DNA of 64,000 nt from Escherichia coli (GTDB taxonomy: Bacteria; Pseudomonadota; Gammaproteobacteria; Enterobacterales; Enterobacteriaceae). Shown here in pieces: positions 2,453-21,071 of the stretch. The position numbers and the translations under genes are program-made. Position 1 is the first letter of the stretch. Each line of letters begins with the position of its first letter. The notes below the pieces were generated by a model that was given only the letters and a program-made list of their open reading frames with translations, had not been told where the DNA came from and ran no database searches. Where the stretch lies: NCBI RefSeq assembly GCF_011045215.1, contig NZ_CP049201.1. The stretch is one strand, 5' to 3'.

Positions 2453-2823
2453 AATACGACACGCCGATCACCCGGACCATCACGTCTGCAAACATCGACC
2501 GTCTGCGCTTTACCTTCGGTGTGCAGGCACTGGTGGAAACCACCTCAAAGGGGGACCGGAATCCATCGGAAGTCCGCCTGCTGGTTCAGATACAACGTAA
2601 CGGTGGCTGGGTGACGGAAAAAGACATCACCATTAAGGGCAAAACCACCTCGCAGTATCTGACCTCGGTGGTGGTGGGTAACCTGCCGCCGCGCCCGTTT
2701 AATATCCGGATGCGCAGGATGACGCCGGACAGCACCACAGACCAGCTGCAGAACAAAACGCTCTGGTCGTCATACACCGAAATCATCGATGTGAAACAGT
2801 GCTACCTTCTGCCCGTAAGGTGA
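2338..2823 (+). pseudogene. Internal fragment (~160 codons) of lambda-like tail-tip/host-specificity gene J, with no N-terminus or C-terminus
   Basis: Translation ...VVFRAGEQEQTPPEGFESSGSETVLGTEVKYDTPITRTITSANIDRLRFTFGVQALVETTSKGDRNPSEVRLLVQIQRNGGWVTEKDITIKGKTTSQY...IIDVKQCY matches the middle of lambda J. It is in a different frame from the truncated A and ends in unrelated sequence. Confidence 0.8.
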
Positions 2824-4004
2824 ATGGTAAGGCGCTTTCAGCGGATATAACACTGACGCCGAAAGATATTGGTACGCTTAACTCAACAACAATGTCATTC
2901 AGCGGTGGTGCTGGTTGGTTCAAATTAGCAACGGTAACCATGCCACAGGCGAGTTCTGTTGTTTCAATTACGTTGATTGGTGGAGCTGGATTTAACGTGG
3001 GGTCACCTCAACAGGCAGGTATATCTGAACTTGTTTTGCGTGCAGGTAATGGTAATCCGAAGGGGATTACTGGTGCTTTATGGCAGCGCACATCGACAGG
3101 GTTTACAAATTTTGCCTGGGTCAATACATCTGGTGATACTTACGATATTTACGTTGCAATCGGAAATTATGCGACTGGTGTAAATATTCAATGGGATTAT
3201 ACCAGTAATGCCAGCGTGACGATTCATACGTCACCAGCATATTCTGCTAATAAGCCGGAAGGGTTAACGGACGGTACAGTTTATTCACTCTATACGCCAT
3301 CAGAACAGTTTTATCCGCCTGGCGCACCAATCCCGTGGCCATCAGATACCGTTCCGTCTGGCTATGCCCTGATGCAGGGGCAGACTTTTGACAAATCTGC
3401 CTACCCGAAACTTGCAGTCGCTTATCCGTCAGGCGTGATCCCTGATATGCGTGGCTGGACGATTAAGGGCAAGCCCGCCAGTGGTCGTGCCGTATTGTCT
3501 CAGGAACAGGACGGCATTAAATCGCATACCCACAGCGCCAGCGCATCCAGTACGGATTTGGGTACGAAAACCACATCGTCGTTTGATTACGGAACCAAAT
3601 CCACGAATAACACCGGGGCGCATACCCATAGTATTAGCGGGACTGCAAATAGTGCCGGTGCGCACCAACACAAGAGTTCCGGTGCATTTGGTGGCACGAA
3701 CACGAGCATTTTTCCTAATGGTTATACTGCGATTTCAAATCCAAGCGCGGGGATTATGAGCACAACAAGCGGTACTGGCCAGACTCGTAATGCAGGGAAG
3801 ACATCATCAGATGGTGCTCATACCCACTCACTGTCCGGCACTGCTGCAAGCGCAGGTGCACACGCACATACTGTCGGTATTGGTGCTCATACGCACTCCG
3901 TTGCGATTGGTTCACATGGACACACCATCACCGTTAACGCTGCTGGTAACGCGGAAAACACCGTCAAAAACATCGCATTTAACTATATTGTGAGGCTTGC
4001 ATAA
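2799..4004 (+). CDS. Side tail fibre protein, C-terminal receptor-binding portion with His-box repeats (probably a 5'-truncated remnant using an internal GTG)
   Basis: 401-aa ORF with repeated GAHTHS/GAHQH/GAHAHT/GSHGHT motifs and a C-terminal ...[22 protein letters not shown] typical of lambdoid Stf and T4 gp37-like fibre tips. Its stop overlaps the tfa start (TAATGG). The N-terminal tail-attachment region expected for Stf is absent. Confidence 0.65.
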
Positions 4005-4585
4005 TGGCATTCAGAATGAGTGAACAACCACGGACCATAAAAATTTATAATCTGCTGGCCGGAACTAATGAATTTATTGGTGAAGGTGACGCATATATTC
4101 CACCTCATACAGGTCTGCCAGCAAACAGTACCGATATTGCACCGCCAGATATTCCGGCAGGCTTCGTGGCTGTTTTCAACAGTGATGAGGCATCGTGGCA
4201 TCTTGTTGAAGACCATCGGGGTAAAACGGTTTATGACGTGGCTTCCGGCGACGCGTTATTTATTTCTGAACTCGGCTTATTACCGGAAAATGTCACCTGG
4301 TTATCCCCGGAAGGGGAGTTTCAGAAGTGGAACGGCACAGCCTGGGTGAAAGATGCAGAAGCAGAAAAACTGTTCCGGATCCGGGAGGCGGAAGAAACAA
4401 AAAACAACCTGATGCAGGTAGCCAGTGAGCATATTGCGCCACTTCAGGATGCTGTAGATCTGGAAATCGCAACGGAGGAAGAAAACTCGTTGCTGGAAGC
4501 CTGGAAGAAGTATCGGGTGTTGCTGAACCGTGTTGATACATCAACTGCACCTGATATTGAGTGGCCTGTAATACCAGAAGTTTAA
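4004..4585 (+). CDS. Tail fibre assembly protein (Tfa)
   Basis: 193-aa ORF translationally coupled to stf; the C-terminus ...[49 protein letters not shown] is the conserved Tfa motif. Confidence 0.85.
4431..4543 (+). repeat. Direct repeat copy 1: 3' segment of tfa (about 88% identical to 8260-8373)
   Basis: atattgcgccacttcaggatgctgtagatctggaaatcgcaacggaggaagaaaactcgttgctggaagcctggaagaagtatcgggtg... is nearly repeated at 8260-8373. Confidence 0.8.
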
Positions 4586-4589
4586 AATA

Positions 4590-4617
4590 AAAGCCCGCTT
4601 AAAATATCGCGGGCTTC
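4590..4617 (-). terminator. Hairpin (aaagcccgc...gcgggcttt) with a T-run on the minus strand; candidate terminator for the minus-strand catalase operon and possibly for tfa
   Basis: Inverted repeat aagcccgc / gcgggctt between convergent tfa and catalase genes; the minus-strand reading gives the stem followed by TTATTTTA. Confidence 0.5.
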
Positions 4618-4704
4618 GAAATATAAATGTATTTTCAGAGGCTAGAGCTTAGGATATCTCAGCGGCAATTAACTTATGAGGGATAGCTAAATACCAGAAG
4701 ATAA

Positions 4705-5595
4705 TTAGTTTTTACTATTTATCTTTGTTTGTGGTTCTCCTTCAGCAAGCTCAGCGCCAGTGACAGGATTGATGTCTTCATGGGATTTCAACCTTGTTGC
4801 CATAGCTTTTATCATAGCTTCTTGCTTGGTCGAAAGATTTATCGAGGCCTTCCCATCCCCACCGTCAACCGCTGGAACTGGATCGGAAATATAGTCAAAG
4901 TTTTCATCACTGTTCCAACTACCTCTGACGTCTTCACCTTCTGACATGTTGTAATATACGTTTTTGTATTTCTCAATTGGTGGTAATTTTCCTGGTGGAA
5001 AGGTGTTGCGAATTGAATGTAATGCTTTTTCAAATGAAAGCATGTGTGCTGCTTCCCTGGTCATTAAAAATGCCAGAGTGTCTTTTACTCCAGGATCATC
5101 AGTAACATTAATGAGACGTTCGTAAATGATCTTTGCCCGAGCTTCAGCTGCAATATTTGAACGAAGATCGGCCGTGACTTCGCCAATAGTATCAACATAA
5201 GCTGCAGTCCAGGGTACTCCAGCTGAATTAGTTAATGCTGGGCCTCCTCCGTAGAGGAGAGAAGTTATATGGCTGTCATTGCCATTTTGAGTTAAGGAAC
5301 GGTAAAGCTCAGCTTCATTCTCAGTTCCTTCAGCAAGTGCTCCTTTTGCACCTTTGTTGAGCATACCAACAAGAGAACCAATAATTTCGAGATGACTTAG
5401 TTCTTCTGTTGCTATGTCCATCAGCATATCCCTTCGGCCTGCATCTTCATCACTTAAGCCTTGAGTGAAGTATCGGCATGCTGCTGCAAGCTCACCCTGT
5501 GGCCCGCCGAATTGTTCTAAAAGTAGATTAGCCAAGCCTGGGTTTGGCTCACTTACACGTACTGTATATTGAAGTTTTTTCACGTGTCTAAACAT
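4705..5595 (-). CDS. Manganese (non-haem) catalase, KatN-like
   Basis: 296-aa product with ferritin-like Mn-catalase architecture (…EELSHLEIIGSLV…, …TREAAHMLSFEKAL…). It is last in a yciG-yciF-yciE-catalase gene order, as in the Salmonella yciGFE-katN operon. Confidence 0.8.
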   Translation of the reverse strand: MFRHVKKLQYTVRVSEPNPGLANLLLEQFGGPQGELAAACRYFTQGLSDEDAGRRDMLMDIATEELSHLEIIGSLVGMLNKGAKGALAEGTENEAELYRSLTQNGNDSHITSLLYGGGPALTNSAGVPWTAAYVDTIGEVTADLRSNIAAEARAKIIYERLINVTDDPGVKDTLAFLMTREAAHMLSFEKALHSIRNTFPPGKLPPIEKYKNVYYNMSEGEDVRGSWNSDENFDYISDPVPAVDGGDGKASINLSTKQEAMIKAMATRLKSHEDINPVTGAELAEGEPQTKINSKN

Positions 5596-5613
5596 AATGC
5601 CTCCTCAAAAGAA

Positions 5614-6120
5614 TTATTTTTTGGCTTCAACTCCATCAATTTCAGATCTGACCATGAATTGCTCAGTGGTGTCAGGAATATGGTTAAGAAGCCATTCAGC
5701 CATTTGTTTTTCTTCATTAAGAATTGCTTCAATAATGGGTACTGAAGCTGTATCACCCGCATTTTTGGCTGCTGCGAGAAGAGATGTGTAGCACGCAATT
5801 TCAAATTGTTCGAAAACATAGCCACTGATCGAACCTTTGACAATTTCATCAGATGGAAAAATTCCACCAATGGATTGCCCAAACGCGGCCATTTTACTCA
5901 TAGAGTCTTTAATGACAGAGCGCGAAATATTATTACGATCAAGTATGCTTTCAAGCTGTGAAAGCTGGTTCTTTGTTTCGCTAATGTGCTGCTCAATTCT
6001 GGAACGTAACTCTGGATAGTTTTCTATCCGGCTGGCCATAGACTCAAGCATTTTTTCAGCTTGTTTCTCCATCGCATGTGCATCACGAAGCCAGTCATGG
6101 TAATGTTCAATTCTATTCAT
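5614..6120 (-). CDS. YciE-like ferritin-like/DUF892 stress protein
   Basis: 168-aa product MNRIEHYHDWLRDAHAMEKQAEKMLESMASRIENYPELR... closely resembles E. coli YciE. Confidence 0.85.
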   Translation of the reverse strand: MNRIEHYHDWLRDAHAMEKQAEKMLESMASRIENYPELRSRIEQHISETKNQLSQLESILDRNNISRSVIKDSMSKMAAFGQSIGGIFPSDEIVKGSISGYVFEQFEIACYTSLLAAAKNAGDTASVPIIEAILNEEKQMAEWLLNHIPDTTEQFMVRSEIDGVEAKK

Positions 6121-6156
6121 AATCTGTTTATCCTAAAAGAAATTGAAGTCTATAGT

Positions 6157-6663
6157 TCAGGAGTTATCCTGAGCTTTTTTATTAACGTTATTAAATGCCA
6201 GGTCTGTTAATTTGACATCAGTAGCTTTTTCCTCTTCCAGTGTTTCTTTCAGGAGTTTAGCCGCTTTTTTATATCCTAATTGCTCAGCGAGTGTTACCAA
6301 AGTGCCATAACTGGCAATTTCATAGTGCTCTACTTTTTGTGCTGCAGCAATCAATGCAGCATCACGTACTTCATTTTTATCAGTGCTTTCAATTACCTCA
6401 TTCGCCTCTTCGATAAGTCCTTCCATTGCGGCACACTTAATTCTTTTCAATTTAAGACCATCTTCAGAATCAACAATCTGATCGATGCGTTCAATTTGAC
6501 CATGTGTCTCATCAAGATGTGACTGAAAAGCAGCGGTTAATTTATCACTATATGCAGAGCGACTAAGTTTAGACAGTGCCTTTGTTAGTTGTTTCTCAGC
6601 GCTGTATGTATCCGATAATAAGTGGATGAAGATATCTTCAACAGATTTAATTTGCATAATCAC
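6157..6663 (-). CDS. YciF-like DUF892 stress protein
   Basis: 168-aa product ...VEDIFIHLLSDTYSAEKQLTKAL...EVRDAALIAAAQKVEHYEIASYGTL... closely resembles E. coli YciF. Confidence 0.85.
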   Translation of the reverse strand: MIMQIKSVEDIFIHLLSDTYSAEKQLTKALSKLSRSAYSDKLTAAFQSHLDETHGQIERIDQIVDSEDGLKLKRIKCAAMEGLIEEANEVIESTDKNEVRDAALIAAAQKVEHYEIASYGTLVTLAEQLGYKKAAKLLKETLEEEKATDVKLTDLAFNNVNKKAQDNS

Positions 6664-6735
6664 TCCAGAGTTTTCACTGCGAGCCCGTAGGCTCGCAGTT
6701 AGCTTCAGTTATTCACGAATGTAGGGGATGATAAA

Positions 6736-6918
6736 TTAAGAGTCAGATTTACGGCCGCCACCATGGCTATTCTGACCACCTTTTTTCCCTGCTTCTGATG
6801 CTCTTTGTGGATCGTTTTTAAAATTACCGCCACTATGTTGGCCGCCTTTACGACCAGCGTCAGAAGCTTTTTGTCGATCTTCAGCGAAATTACCTGCACC
6901 GCCACGATGTTCGGTCAT
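6736..6918 (-). CDS. YciG-like KGG-repeat general stress protein
   Basis: 60-aa product MTEHRGGAGNFAEDRQKASDAGRKGGQHSGGNFKNDPQRASEAGKKGGQ... with KGG repeats, resembling YciG/YmdF; first gene of the four-gene minus-strand operon. Confidence 0.8.
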   Translation of the reverse strand: MTEHRGGAGNFAEDRQKASDAGRKGGQHSGGNFKNDPQRASEAGKKGGQNSHGGGRKSDS

Positions 6919-7383
6919 ATCATTTCTCCTCTGATTTTCAAATTGTAAATAACATGTGCCTTGTCAGCACCCAATTAACTCTAGTAACAAATAAGAAAGT
7001 GTCAAATAACAGATTGGTATGCGCATTTTGATGTGAGAAATAATAATTGTAAAAATGTGCGCTCAGTGAGTATAATCTATTGATATCTTAGTGATTAACG
7101 GAAAATTTAGGTTGTAACTCAAAAGATTAATAAACCTAAATTTACATTTCTATATTATTTGGTGTGCCTGTTGTTGTTTTTCTCAATAAGAATACTCTGT
7201 AAAATAATTCAATCGTAAGATGGTTGTTATTCATATTTTTTTGAGATAGTTCCTAATAGGGTCCATCCCTTGAATAAATAATTGTTTTAAAATTTCGTCT
7301 AAAGAACTAATTACAAGAAAATTTATATAGTCCAAGGAATCATGATTGTACTTAACCATAAGATTTGAGCGTAAAAATTAATG

Positions 7384-7414
7384 CGCAGCACGTCGTATGC
7401 AAGAACGTGCTGCG
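7384..7414 (-). terminator. Rho-independent terminator candidate downstream of the methyltransferase gene
   Basis: 9-bp perfect stem cgcagcacg / cgtgctgcg; on the minus strand it is followed by ATTAATTTTT. Confidence 0.55.
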
Positions 7415-7422
7415 GTTGGATG

Positions 7423-8091
7423 CTATTTTTTCCCTGAAGCGGAAAACATTACTACAGTACCTTGAACCTTGGTTTTAACATTCTCGAAATGCTCTGAGAG
7501 TATATGTGTTAAGCCTTCTTCGGAATCTCTTGTGTTTGAAAAGATGCCTTTCTGATTGTAAATGCGCATCAGTTTTTGACCGAAGCGATTGTGCACAATT
7601 CCATCGCCAAGAATTGTGGCTCCGTATAGAGTTCCATCGCCAGTTAAGGCCTGCGCCGCATTGCGTATTACACAGCTTTTTGTAGATATATTTCCAGGCA
7701 GGCAGTGAAGAAGGTAAAACATGGAAATGGAATCAAATTGACCATGTAACGCCGCGGGATAAGGTTCAAAAACATCATGGCTAATTTTATGTTTAATTTT
7801 TGATTCCCCAGCCCTTGTAGATGCCGCGTTCAGGCTAGCTTCGTTCAAATCCATTAAAGATATCAGACTACTCTCAGGTACGTGAGTAAGGTAAAACCCA
7901 GTTCCAACACCAATATCCAGATGGTTGTTACCTAAATGTTCCAGAAAGTGTGGAAGAAGGTGTTCCTTTGTAGGACATCCCCATGCAAGCCGATTTGATA
8001 CTCCCAAAACCCACCAGTCATAAAGCTTTAGGGTAAGTGGTGTGTAAATTTTAGCCCCATCATCTGTGTTTTTTTTCATTAATTTCACCAT
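7423..8091 (-). CDS. ybcY: Class I SAM-dependent methyltransferase (YbcY-like), apparently intact
   Basis: 222-aa ORF with the SAM-binding motif LDIGVGTGFY and a Rossmann-type methyltransferase layout. It occupies the ybcY position of DLP12, between the tfa copies. Confidence 0.7.
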   Translation of the reverse strand: MVKLMKKNTDDGAKIYTPLTLKLYDWWVLGVSNRLAWGCPTKEHLLPHFLEHLGNNHLDIGVGTGFYLTHVPESSLISLMDLNEASLNAASTRAGESKIKHKISHDVFEPYPAALHGQFDSISMFYLLHCLPGNISTKSCVIRNAAQALTGDGTLYGATILGDGIVHNRFGQKLMRIYNQKGIFSNTRDSEEGLTHILSEHFENVKTKVQGTVVMFSASGKK

Positions 8092-8147
8092 GTTATAGTT
8101 TTATTTGTGAATTAAATCAATTATGGCAATGAATTACAAGGGGTTAA

Positions 8148-8453
8148 ATGCTGCCGCAGCATGGCGATATTGAAATAGCCTGGTATGCTTCAATACAGCA
8201 GGAGCCGAATGGCTGGAAGACCGTCACCACACAGTTCTACATCCAGGAATTCAGTGAGTATATTGCGCCACTGCAGGATGCTGTAGATCTGGAAATCGCA
8301 ACGGAGGAAGAAAGATCGTTGCTGGAGGCATGGAATAAATATCGGGTATTGTTGAATCGTGTTGATACATCAGTAGCTCTGGGTATGAAGCTGTTTGTAA
8401 CTCATGTTACAGTAACAGCCATTACTATCTCGAAGGTGCAAAATGTATATTGA
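8148..8453 (+). pseudogene. tfaX: Tail fibre assembly gene remnant (tfaX-like), carrying only part of the Tfa C-terminal domain
   Basis: 101-aa ORF with ...[38 protein letters not shown]... but no Tfa N-terminal half, and a divergent C-terminal tail. Confidence 0.7.
8260..8373 (+). repeat. Direct repeat copy 2: tfa 3' segment (pairs with 4431-4543)
   Basis: tattgcgccactgcaggatgctgtagatctggaaatcgcaacggaggaagaaagatcgttgctggaggcatggaataaatatcgggta... Confidence 0.8.
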
Positions 8454-8581
8454 TTTGATATTTTATAAATTTACTTCGAATCTGGCACGTCAACTTTTGA
8501 TTAAAGTAATATCAGTTTTCGGCGAAAAAAGGACCGTGTACATGAGACGATTTCATACAAGAATAACAAAAATATGAATAT

Positions 8582-8615
8582 GCTCCCAATGCAATATATG
8601 TTTTGCATTGGGAGC
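8582..8615 (-). terminator. Rho-independent terminator candidate for the peptidase gene
   Basis: 12-bp stem gctcccaatgca / tgcattgggagc; the minus-strand reading is followed by a T-rich run. Confidence 0.55.
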
Positions 8616-8636
8616 AAATAGCGGAATATTTTGAAA

Positions 8637-10121
8637 TTATTGTATTTCTGCTTCAGAATTTCCTGGGCAGTATATATTTTCTATTTTTTGTGGAGTGATC
8701 AGGTGATGTACAACTGCTTTATCTACACATAAATTAACTCCGGTGAGAGCTAATGTATGCCCATCACCATTTATTGTTAGTAACGGGCTGGAAAATTTCT
8801 CTGCCATCTTACGGGCATTAATCCAGGGCGTTGTTGGATCGTATTTGTGTGCTACAAACAGTAAACCAGAGGGCAGAACAGTATTTTTCAGGCGAGTTTT
8901 GTTCAGGTCGCTATGTATTGGCCATAATTCACAAAAATCAGGTGAATCGGAACGTCCATTGTCAAAGTTAATAGCCGGGAAGGCATTCGCAAGAGCCTCT
9001 TTTCGGAATTTTCGCTCTTCTGGTGTTAATTGCTCATCCCCCTGATCTACACAAAGGATTACCCCCGAAGCATCACTTGACTCTTCTGAGGCTATCGGAG
9101 CACTGAGCGCAGTTTCAATTTCATTACTGACAATCCCCTGAGAGAACTGGCGTATGGCAGTTGCAAGGGTTGGCCATGATGAACGCCATAGCAGAAGGTC
9201 TGTTGTTAATGATATGAGTTCATCTGAAGATATATTTTCTCCCTTACTGTCTAATAAAGGTTTGTGATGTAATTTTGATAATAGCTCATGGAACTGAGTT
9301 ATTGCCTTATCTCTGTCTGAAGAAAGCGGGCAACTTTTTGTACGCGCACACCAGGATGCAAAGCGATCAAACGTTTCCTGATAACTCTGTGCCTGTTTGA
9401 GTTGCCATGTGAAGTTGTTCTCCAGGTCATCGATATCGACGACTCCATCAAGAACGATAGATCTTACGTTGTAGGGAAAACGTTCTGCATATAAGGCTGC
9501 AATTTGAGTTCCATACGAATACGCCACGGCTGTCAGTTGTTTATCCCCCAAGGCTTGCCTAATACGATCAATATCGTATACAGCCTCGTTAGAGCCGATA
9601 TGGCGAATGACTTCGGCTCCGGTATTATGGATACAGGCATTAATTTTATTTAATACTTGTTGCTTTTCGGTTATGTTTTCCTGAGTCTCTGTATCTGATT
9701 GTCGGCAGTTTATTGTCGGAGTGGACTGTCCGACGCCTCGAGGATCAAATCCAATAATATCCCATGACTCACGAAGATTTGTGACTGGCCAGTCAAAGTT
9801 AATATAAGGATTTATGCCTGGCAACCCGGGACCACCACTTATTATCAGGATACTTCCTTTATGCTTGCTTTTTGCCGGCAATTTTGTCAACGCTAGTTTG
9901 ACTTGTGATTTTTTTTCATAAGAAGCATCTCCGCCTGTGTCTGTATATTTTAATGGAACAGACAAATAACCACATAGTAAGTCAGGAGACGGTTTTTCCT
10001 CACCAAACCAGTGGTTGAATTGACTGGCCATACAGGATTGCCACTGTATCTGCTGGGCAGATACGGTTACTGGTAGAAGTAACGTTAAAACAACTTTGAA
10101 ATGAGTAATTATTTTTCGCAT
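8637..10121 (-). CDS. Secreted alpha/beta-hydrolase, S33-type (tripeptidyl/prolyl aminopeptidase-like) peptidase
   Basis: 494-aa ORF with an N-terminal signal peptide (MRKIITHFKVVLTLLLPVTVSA), a GGPGLPG oxyanion-type motif and a nucleophile elbow VAYSYGTQ (G-x-S-x-G variant). Confidence 0.65.
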   Translation of the reverse strand: MRKIITHFKVVLTLLLPVTVSAQQIQWQSCMASQFNHWFGEEKPSPDLLCGYLSVPLKYTDTGGDASYEKKSQVKLALTKLPAKSKHKGSILIISGGPGLPGINPYINFDWPVTNLRESWDIIGFDPRGVGQSTPTINCRQSDTETQENITEKQQVLNKINACIHNTGAEVIRHIGSNEAVYDIDRIRQALGDKQLTAVAYSYGTQIAALYAERFPYNVRSIVLDGVVDIDDLENNFTWQLKQAQSYQETFDRFASWCARTKSCPLSSDRDKAITQFHELLSKLHHKPLLDSKGENISSDELISLTTDLLLWRSSWPTLATAIRQFSQGIVSNEIETALSAPIASEESSDASGVILCVDQGDEQLTPEERKFRKEALANAFPAINFDNGRSDSPDFCELWPIHSDLNKTRLKNTVLPSGLLFVAHKYDPTTPWINARKMAEKFSSPLLTINGDGHTLALTGVNLCVDKAVVHHLITPQKIENIYCPGNSEAEIQ

Positions 10122-20398: not shown

Positions 20399-21071
20399 CC
20401 GGCACCTCAAGCATGTAACCCACGCCGCGCACGGTTTGAATCAGCTTCGGCTCAAAGTCGTTGTCGATTTTGCCGCGTAGCCGCTTCACCGCCACATCAA
20501 TGGCGTTAGTGTCGCTGTCAAAATTCATGTCCCATACCTGCGAGGCGATAAGCGAGCGGGGCAGCACTTCGCCCTGATGGCGGAGAAAAAACTCCAGCAG
20601 AGTAAACTCTTTACTGGTCAGAGTGATGCGCGTGCCGCTGCGGGTGACTTTGCGGCTGACGAGATCGACCATCAAATCGGCAACCTGAAACTGACTTTCG
20701 ATAATCACCGCCGCCCCGCGCCGCAGGAGAGTGCGCACCCGCGCCAGCAGTTCAGCAAACGCGAACGGCTTCACCAGATAGTCATCGGCCCCCAACTCCA
20801 GCCCCTTGACGCGATGTTCAATGGTGCCAAGCGCGGTAAGCAACAGAATCGGCATCCCTTTATTGGCGGAGCGCAACATGCGCACGATATCCCAGCCGTT
20901 CACGTCCGGCAGCATAATATCGAGGATTATCAGGTCATAATCTCCGGTCATCGCCAGATGGTAGCCATTCAGCCCGTTGTCGGCCAAATCGACCACAAAA
21001 CCGGCTTCGGTTAACCCTTTGGTCAAGTATTCTCCGGTTTTCTTTTCATCTTCGACAATCAACAGTTTCAT
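20388..21071 (-). CDS. cusR: OmpR-family response regulator CusR
   Basis: 227-aa product [67 protein letters not shown]... Confidence 0.95.

Follow-up and report, generated by a model that had tools for sequence, protein, structure and literature searches.

The 504-bp AT-rich spacer at positions 6919-7422 of the window, by which we mean the whole 64,000-nucleotide stretch of Escherichia coli DNA analysed here, is very probably the regulatory region of a prophage moron joined to one element of the phage backbone. At one end, a σS-type promoter within 6919-7005 would drive the minus-strand operon yciG-yciF-yciE-katN in stationary phase and under stress. The adjoining segment, 7006-7383, appears to travel only with this cassette and is most likely a platform for H-NS silencing, which would be relieved by RpoS-holoenzyme, by OxyR and possibly by McbR/YncC, if the analogy with the native locus holds. 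At the other end, 7384-7422 carries a conserved hairpin with which, in phages of the HK97 and DLP12 kinds, the tail-fibre (late) region closes; it would probably end or stabilise the methyltransferase transcript and shield the yciG promoter from read-through. The features are listed in Table 1.

Table 1. Features of the spacer and of the operon next to it (positions in the window)
Feature	Position	Strand	Basis or remarks
Intrinsic terminator after katN (predicted)	4590..4617	-	9-bp GC-rich stem, then UUUUAUU; folding z = -2.7 (minus strand)
katN	4705-5595	-	ORF list and RefSeq annotation of identical proteins in other strains
yciE-like gene	5614-6120	-	ORF list and RefSeq annotation of identical proteins in other strains
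yciF-like gene	6157-6663	-	ORF list and RefSeq annotation of identical proteins in other strains
yciG-like gene	6736-6918	-	ORF list and RefSeq annotation of identical proteins in other strains
yciG 5′ UTR (inferred)	6919..6971	-	~53 nt; start ~7 nt past the -10 element
σS-type promoter of yciG-yciF-yciE-katN (predicted)	6978..7005	-	Promoter scan, 10/12 consensus matches
AT-rich upstream regulatory module, non-coding	7006..7383		~27% GC; presumed H-NS-bound silencing/regulator region
σ70-like motif TTGTAA, 18 bp, TATAAT	7047..7076	+	Promoter scan, 10/12 consensus matches
Perfect 11-bp inverted repeat AAATTTAGGTT / AACCTAAATTT, 19-bp gap	7103..7143		Centre lies ~150 bp upstream of the yciG start as inferred
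Conserved 40-bp phage-backbone joint with GC-rich hairpin 7384-7414	7384..7422		Folding; recurrence across phages

Genomic setting of the spacer

The spacer fills the gap between two minus-strand open reading frames, extending from the start codon of a 60-aa yciG-like gene (6736..6918) to the stop codon of a gene for a 222-aa class I SAM-dependent methyltransferase (7423..8091). Its GC content is 30.4%, or 28.0% for 6919-7383 without the terminal hairpin, compared with 51.1% for the whole window, in which just 0.08% of all 504-bp segments are as AT-rich.

The window covers the right end of a lambdoid prophage, which takes the DLP12 position in the E. coli chromosome. The gene order starts on the plus strand with a side tail fibre gene (2799-4004) and tfa (4004-4585), followed on the minus strand by katN, which encodes a Mn catalase, by the yciE-, yciF- and yciG-like genes, and then by the spacer. 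Past the spacer lie the methyltransferase gene, which is an intact form of the K-12 pseudogene ybcY, a tfaX remnant, an alpha/beta hydrolase gene, ompT, nfrA and cus genes. The terminator after katN also lies directly 3′ of the tfa stop codon on the plus strand; it was missed by a pattern scan because its loop is 10 nt long.

Comparison with other prophages delimited the inserted DNA. Positions 4568-7383 of the window are absent from DLP12 of K-12, and homology restarts exactly at 7384, where the hairpin begins; in K-12, tfaD leads directly to the hairpin, and ybcY lies within 54 bp of tfaD. Strain Evo1 carries the same cassette and spacer in a prophage at lambda attB, next to ybhB-bioA, and here homology to the window ends exactly at 7422. 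In strain A34, cassette and spacer reside in a different prophage type near yfhH/tadA, while O157:H7 has the cassette in Sp8 (Sakai) and CP-933X (EDL933). The spacer proper (6919-7383) was found in 381 of 5426 complete E. coli genomes and always adjoined the cassette in the loci examined. Spacer matches as such occurred in 1985 of the 5426 genomes, most of them being the hairpin segment alone, as in K-12.

Thus placed between elements that are adjacent in relatives (K-12 DLP12, and HK97 with its order tfa-hairpin-sib/attP), the cassette has a predicted promoter (7005-6978) and a predicted terminator (4617-4590) of its own, both on the minus strand, and its base composition (41% GC, spacer 30%) is below the 51% of the window. 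Judged by insertion site, signals and composition, the spacer forms part of a prophage moron, which carries yciG-yciF-yciE-katN in minus-strand orientation and has entered between tfa and a conserved phage hairpin. An earlier description of this DNA, hereafter the sequence-only reading, had noted a non-coding, AT-rich spacer of ~500 bp and suspected its horizontal acquisition. The former agrees with the 504 bp, the 30% GC and the absence of ORF conservation, and the latter is clear because the spacer belongs to a prophage moron.

The moron concept is usually attributed to Juhala and Hendrix, and bor, lom and HK97 gene 15 are said to be examples. Like the morons of lambdoid phages, the cassette is extra DNA between two neighbouring backbone elements, with its own predicted promoter and terminator and a GC content below that of the backbone; by analogy, it would be expressed from a repressed prophage. 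Unlike typical lambdoid morons, it is a four-gene operon instead of a single gene, it opposes the orientation of the late operon, and it possesses an unusually long upstream region (~380 bp). Morons of lambdoid prophages are mentioned in PMC4104026.

The operon promoter and its control

A promoter scan of the spacer found a σS-type site on the minus strand (7005-6978) and a σ70-like site on the plus strand. The former is the best promoter-like site on the minus strand and consists of a -35 element TTGACA (7005-7000), a 16-bp spacer, a C at -13 (6984) and a -10 element TAGAGT (6983-6978) followed by TAA. Selectivity for σS is known to be marked by a C at -13 and by A/T-richness just past the -10 element. 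For comparison, yciF loci were collected, each species being represented by one genome; among them, yciG was identified in 41 loci of Enterobacteriaceae, whose upstream DNA we inspected. The arrangement TTGACN, 16 bp, C, TAnnnT, TA(A/T/G) was present in 37 of these 41 chromosomal yciG loci of other Enterobacteriaceae, including those of Citrobacter, Enterobacter, Klebsiella, Salmonella and other genera; the window has it in the form TTGACA, 16 bp, -13C, TAGAGT, TAA. In the window and in the 37 loci alike it lies 59-80 nt 5′ of the start codon, and the -10 sequence of the window, CTAGAGTTA, is the same as in several Enterobacter species.

By this common layout, the promoter at 7005-6978 is orthologous to the chromosomal yciG promoters, which gives a location to the minus-strand promoter of the stress operon that the sequence-only reading had expected in the spacer. 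From the position of the -10 element we infer that transcription of the operon begins near 6971, which leaves a 5′ UTR of the length given in Table 1. The UTR includes a Shine-Dalgarno sequence, GAGGAG, at 6931-6926 and a small stem-loop (6970-6956) at its presumed 5′ end; as a whole, it folds no better than shuffled sequences (z = -0.3). UTR and core promoter (6919-7005) are 100% identical across all alleles.

The katN operon of EHEC O157:H7 (Z1921-Z1924 on CP-933X; ECs1652-1655 on Sp8) comprises the same four genes, 99-100% identical, in the same place after tfa and before a ybcY-type methyltransferase gene, and its core promoter and UTR are identical to those of the window. It differs in the upstream 378 bp, where the window haplotype deviates at 75 of 378 positions (19.8%); in addition, in O157, unlike in the window, an ISEc8 element separates the tfaX remnant from the hydrolase gene. 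While the anatomy, promoter architecture, module boundaries and allele structure were established here, control by RpoS, OxyR and H-NS comes from the literature on O157, and thus from a haplotype that is ~20% different from the window in 7006-7383. In EDL933, Z1922-Z1924 were 35- to 137-fold RpoS-dependent (PMC2907692). In O157, RpoS is indispensable for the transcription of katN and OxyR promotes it, katN was upregulated > 450-fold in an hns deletion mutant, and KatN is a catalase secreted by the T6SS that aids EHEC survival in macrophages (PMC5363993).

The gene order of the window is also that of the chromosomal yciGFE(katN) locus of Salmonella, E. coli K-12 and other Enterobacteriaceae, from which the window's copy differs in being phage-borne; its proteins are 75-83% identical to the nearest chromosomal copies. 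The chromosomal yciG loci and the window have in common the promoter layout and a long AT-rich upstream region, but their DNA is not homologous upstream of the -35 element. Specifically, only the RBS and start codon aligned between the spacer and the native yciG upstream DNA of K-12, and a search of the spacer against 80 yciG loci of other species gave no matches at E ≤ 0.01. For the native yciG locus, Beraud et al. (2010) reportedly described RpoS dependence, repression by H-NS and activation by YncC/McbR. McbR/YncC control is not transferable to the window by homology, because the upstream module lacks homology to the native yciG upstream regions. The upstream gap of the chromosomal loci measures 140-575 bp, with a median GC content of 40% versus 43-57% (mostly 50-57%) for the whole locus. 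Such long AT-rich regions would fit a common control by nucleoid proteins, not by shared sequence.

With 28-30% GC versus 51%, and a place among the lowest 0.08% of 504-bp segments, the spacer has the AT content of H-NS-silenced DNA. Nothing in it closely resembles the H-NS high-affinity motif TCGATAAATT, to which it has only two hits with two mismatches; the number of such hits in the whole window, 66 versus 62 ± 8 expected, is at chance level. This motif is not required for H-NS binding. Matches to the OxyR, CRP and IHF consensus sequences in the spacer did not exceed chance, and a GATC (Dam) site is absent from it. That the spacer is an H-NS target, as proposed by the sequence-only reading, fits its composition and, by analogy, the ~450-fold increase of the O157 homologue katN in the hns deletion mutant (PMC5363993); it is from these two observations that we infer H-NS occupancy.

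The hairpin at the phage joint

The arms of the terminal hairpin (7384-7393 and 7405-7414) form a perfect repeat, with 11 pairs when folded. The plus strand folds at -20.3 kcal/mol (z = -2.3) and the minus strand at -18.0 kcal/mol (z = -3.8; none of 200 shuffles was as good), and the hairpin sits 9 nt past the stop codon of the methyltransferase gene. The 40 bp CCGCAGCACGTCGTATGCAAGAACGTGCTGCGGTTGG recur, loop included, with differing flanks on both sides. In HK97, this joint (20938-20986) follows tfa and precedes sib/attP, at a distance of ~60 bp from sib. We also found it in HK106, Ayreon and Stx2a phages, between tfaD and ybcY in K-12, and at the edge of the cassette in Evo1 and A34. A phage database search with the spacer returned only matches to 39-49 bp of the hairpin, and no similarity of the upstream module to phage genomes beyond them.

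Since the 40 bp recur with different flanks across phages, the hairpin is phage backbone and not cargo. Thus, the strong hairpin that the sequence-only reading placed at 7384-7414 exists, but it is a conserved lambdoid backbone joint and not a feature of the spacer or cargo. Compared with HK97 and K-12 DLP12, the moron in the window is inserted between tfa and the hairpin, so that the hairpin now follows the methyltransferase gene only. Being common to several modules, the joint would offer a homology patch for modular exchange.

The hairpins of HK97, HK106, Ayreon and K-12 DLP12 (tfaD/ybcY) and the 3′ hairpin of CssrB are near-identical to the window over the 40 bp including the loop. cssrB specifies a northern-validated Shigella RNA of ~180 nt, the 3′ end of which was set by terminator prediction (PMC3071730). 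The window aligns to the 3′ hairpin of the Rfam CssrB model (RF02799) only, with 135 model positions deleted and a score of 29.5 bits, which is below the gathering score of 76 that applies to the whole model; the 135-nt body of CssrB is absent from the window.

We consider the hairpin to be probably a bidirectional terminator or a 3′-end hairpin. In all contexts compared, it is located at a gene 3′ end or between convergent genes and, as expected of a Rho-independent terminator, forms a stable stem-loop, rich in GC, where a transcription unit has its 3′ end. A U-tract within a few nucleotides of the stem is lacking: a T-run starts 11 nt past the stem on the plus strand, and UUUUU 8 nt past it on the minus strand. 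With no U-tract next to the stem in either orientation, the hairpin departs from a textbook intrinsic terminator; it was not called in a terminator scan. The K-12 3′-end tables hold no entry at the DLP12 hairpin. The missing adjacent U-tract and the silent terminator scan suggest that it may be a weak terminator, a 3′-end stabiliser or a processing site. We gave some, if limited, credence to the possibility that 7384-7414 is no terminator and instead serves as an element for 3′-end protection or RNase processing, or as a conserved linker for recombination of phage modules. Apart from the absent U-tract and the flanks that vary by context, this would account for the conservation of the loop in addition to the stem, for the proximity to the sib retroregulation site in HK97, and for module boundaries that fall exactly at both edges of the joint, 7384 and 7422. 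Against it stand the position at gene 3′ ends or between convergent genes in every context, the strength and GC-richness of the stem, and the prediction of the homologous hairpin as the Rho-independent terminator of cssrB; besides, roles as terminator, protective element and linker are mutually compatible.

Two haplotypes of the upstream module

The divergence between the window and O157 is concentrated in 7006-7383. There, the above-mentioned 19.8% of positions differ, with the lowest identity, 62%, in 7200-7300. By comparison, of 2757 positions in the methyltransferase gene and the four cargo genes together, 19 differ (0.7%; for third codon positions, 1.1%), UTR and core promoter show zero differences, and the flanks of the module are 99.3% identical between the two haplotypes (Fisher p ~1e-53 for the module versus the flanking genes). 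Alleles L091 and L002 are mosaics: L091 changes to the O157 type at ~7357. Evo1 contains an O157-type block at 7156-7172. The best-conserved portion of the variable module is 7040-7155. Scans of viral and metagenome sequences with a conserved 20-22-mer revealed only the known haplotypes. The same scans gave three chance matches in AT-rich DNA of unrelated metagenome contigs, two of which are apparently homologous to each other.

Collectively, these comparisons point to two old haplotypes that have been shuffled by recombination. Because some alleles are block-wise mosaics, we dropped local hypermutation as the source of the divergent island and prefer recombination. A known precedent may be horizontal regulatory switching, reportedly described by Oren and co-workers in PNAS in 2014, in which strains of E. 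coli are said to exchange promoter regions irrespective of the genes on either side. As in that process, the regulatory segment of the window is far more diverged than both coding flanks, and mosaic recombinants occur; unlike in the process as described, the segment lies inside mobile prophage cargo. A speculative and rather unlikely extension is that 7006-7383 is an independently exchanged regulatory cassette, through which the control of the secreted catalase operon by H-NS, RpoS and OxyR would differ between EHEC-type and non-EHEC-type strains, and which might even carry a plus-strand RNA ending at the CssrB-type hairpin.

The inverted repeat at 7103-7143 is the sole element that stands out in the module and is situated in its better-conserved part. 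Inverted repeats of this length arose in ~1.7% of dinucleotide-preserving shuffles. As RNA, the segment folds weakly (-9.7 kcal/mol on the plus strand, -11.8 kcal/mol on the minus strand), and it contains two haplotype differences, both of which retain G-U pairing on the plus strand only. The repeat is a tentative feature and the best candidate for a specific protein-binding site.

The G-U pairing retained on the plus strand, as well as the conservation of 7040-7155, could speak for a discrete plus-strand non-coding RNA that would start at ~7083 and end near 7103-7143 (~70-80 nt) or at 7384-7414 (~335 nt). We regard such an RNA, and with it the suggestion of an sRNA in the sequence-only reading, as quite improbable. 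The TATAAT noted by that reading near 7070-7080 is present on the plus strand (7071-7076); with its -35 element TTGTAA, which lies 18 bp upstream, it agrees with the consensus at 10 of 12 positions, and both hexamers are kept in most alleles of both haplotypes. As a promoter, however, the site is not above chance, given that 7 promoter-like sites were found in 6600-8300 as compared with 5.2 ± 2.5 in shuffled sequences; moreover, the distance between -35 and -10 elements varies among alleles (18 or 19 bp, the latter in L001, L002, L091, L097 and L098), and the -10 element reads TACAAT in A34. When A34 is included, ~4 of 6 substitution events fit plus-strand pairing in the repeat (estimated chance probability ~0.06), and the terminal hairpin lies in the same orientation as its homologue at the predicted 3′ end of the northern-validated cssrB. 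Nevertheless, folding of the putative RNAs is no better than that of shuffled sequences (z = -1.3 and -1.6), the AT-rich hairpin at 7103-7143 is weak and followed by no clean U-tract, and the match to CssrB is limited to the terminal hairpin, as stated above.

Rfam scans of the spacer, its neighbourhood and related loci with E-values of up to 10 gave no other notable match; weak hits to snoRNA, miRNA and SAM-VI families were discarded as chance. For the homologous Sakai interval (1655483-1655979), neither an sRNA in the Hfq-CRAC tables (Tree et al. 2014, supplement) nor a small gene in the ribosome-profiling tables (Hücker et al. 2017, supplement) is listed. The published repression of the operon by H-NS implies that the plus-strand site would likely be silenced as well. 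Antisense transcription of the methyltransferase gene, which the sequence-only reading derived from the plus-strand TATAAT, is not borne out, as a transcript from 7083 would meet the hairpin first.

The remaining alternative, a small protein gene or its decayed remnant on the minus strand of the distal spacer (~7140-7360), is hardly credible: although a 42-aa ATG ORF exists at 7231-7359 (-), is joined to the next ORF by a 2-nt difference in strain A34 to give 69 aa, and is called a hypothetical protein in a few assemblies, it has no upstream Shine-Dalgarno sequence, changes in length with a T-run polymorphism, and is missing from the Sakai ribosome-profiling list and from the O157 haplotype, which lacks any minus-strand ORF of at least 20 aa there. 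This 42-aa ORF is the longest ATG ORF in the spacer, all six frames of which contain 6-17 stop codons each, with a longest stop-free run of 49 codons. In a search of 5.8 billion proteins, the 69-aa version matched 13 near-identical ORF calls from E. coli and nothing else, with neither distant homologues nor a Pfam domain, and RefSeq has no CDS inside 6919-7383 among the genomes listed. The small-ORF reading was dropped on the basis of allele comparison and homology search; together with the ORF scan, these bear out the earlier statement that the spacer has no convincing ORF.

The spacer thus is an ordinary, largely known regulatory region of a published prophage-borne stress/catalase operon, and our result, being mostly tidying, leaves current understanding unchallenged. 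The promoter of the katN operon is now placed in the prophage copy as the σS-type element of chromosomal yciG loci across the Enterobacteriaceae, and cargo DNA is separated from phage backbone at the hairpin. Given the role of KatN in EHEC survival in macrophages, the two haplotypes of the upstream module could therefore matter for strain differences in expression.

Annotations over and beside the hairpin

Scanning with Rfam placed matches to IS009 (RF02111) in the window and in the K-12 comparison locus L003, all of which fall within tail-fibre assembly genes, in the 3′ part of their coding sequence. K-12 tfaD scores 228 bits against this model; in the window, the score of the tfaX remnant is 111 bits, slightly below the gathering score of 117. 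The IS009 'RNA family' appears to be tfa coding sequence. In Evo1-like genomes, the reading frame of WP_369865904.1, annotated in RefSeq as a 37-aa 'capsid protein', spans the hairpin. Other contexts do not preserve this frame, and the HK97 annotation has no gene over the hairpin; the RefSeq annotation looks spurious.

Features located in the window and in comparison loci (L002, Evo1-type; L003, K-12; L090, O157:H7 strain F8492)
Feature	Position	Strand	Source or placement
IS009 (RF02111) match	window 8171-8374	+	Rfam scan
IS009 (RF02111) matches	L003 7857-8055 and 8899-9102		Rfam scan
'Capsid protein' WP_369865904.1, 37 aa	L002 6460-6573; window-equivalent about 7378 onward	+	RefSeq annotation
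AT-rich palindromic stretch	window 8563-8638		immediately 3′ of alpha/beta hydrolase stop codon
Alpha/beta hydrolase gene	window 8637..10121	-	
IS1203/IS629	L090 1735-2948		within spacer
IS1203/IS629 insertion point	window-equivalent about 7010		immediately upstream of yciG promoter -35

Cassette surroundings and the ompT side

The katN-yciEFG cassette occupies at least three chromosomal sites, in differing prophage types (L001, L002, L006 and L004), one of which has baseplate J/gp47 tail genes and a recombinase remnant. Across these contexts, the left side of the cassette bears a short tfa 3′ fragment. Further right, we compared window 8460-10121 with L003 9100-10431 and L001 8034-8783. The interval between the tfaX remnant and ompT holds an alpha/beta hydrolase gene in the window and in O157 and O8:H8 strains, whereas appY occupies it in K-12 and JNEC-KY175. 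The palindromic stretch beside the hydrolase gene gave weak matches to miRNA hairpin models on both strands (Rfam; mir-450, 34 bits), and is probably a bidirectional terminator hairpin.

The yciG leader and its upstream module

Comparison of the 60-80 nt upstream of each yciG start codon in loci from other species (L009-L061) revealed that leaders from different genera each have a small stem-loop close to their inferred 5′ end (in the window, at 6956-6970), its sequence differing between them (GATACG...CGTATC, ATGAGTGT...ACACTCAT and GTGAC...GTCAC). In the leaders of Salmonella arizonae and diarizonae, a T-run comes after a hairpin that resembles a terminator. The yciG UTR of the window folded no better than shuffled sequences.

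An IS1203/IS629 element lies within the spacer of O157:H7 strain F8492. Because this insertion splits the core yciG promoter from the AT-rich upstream module, F8492 constitutes a natural test of the function of that module.
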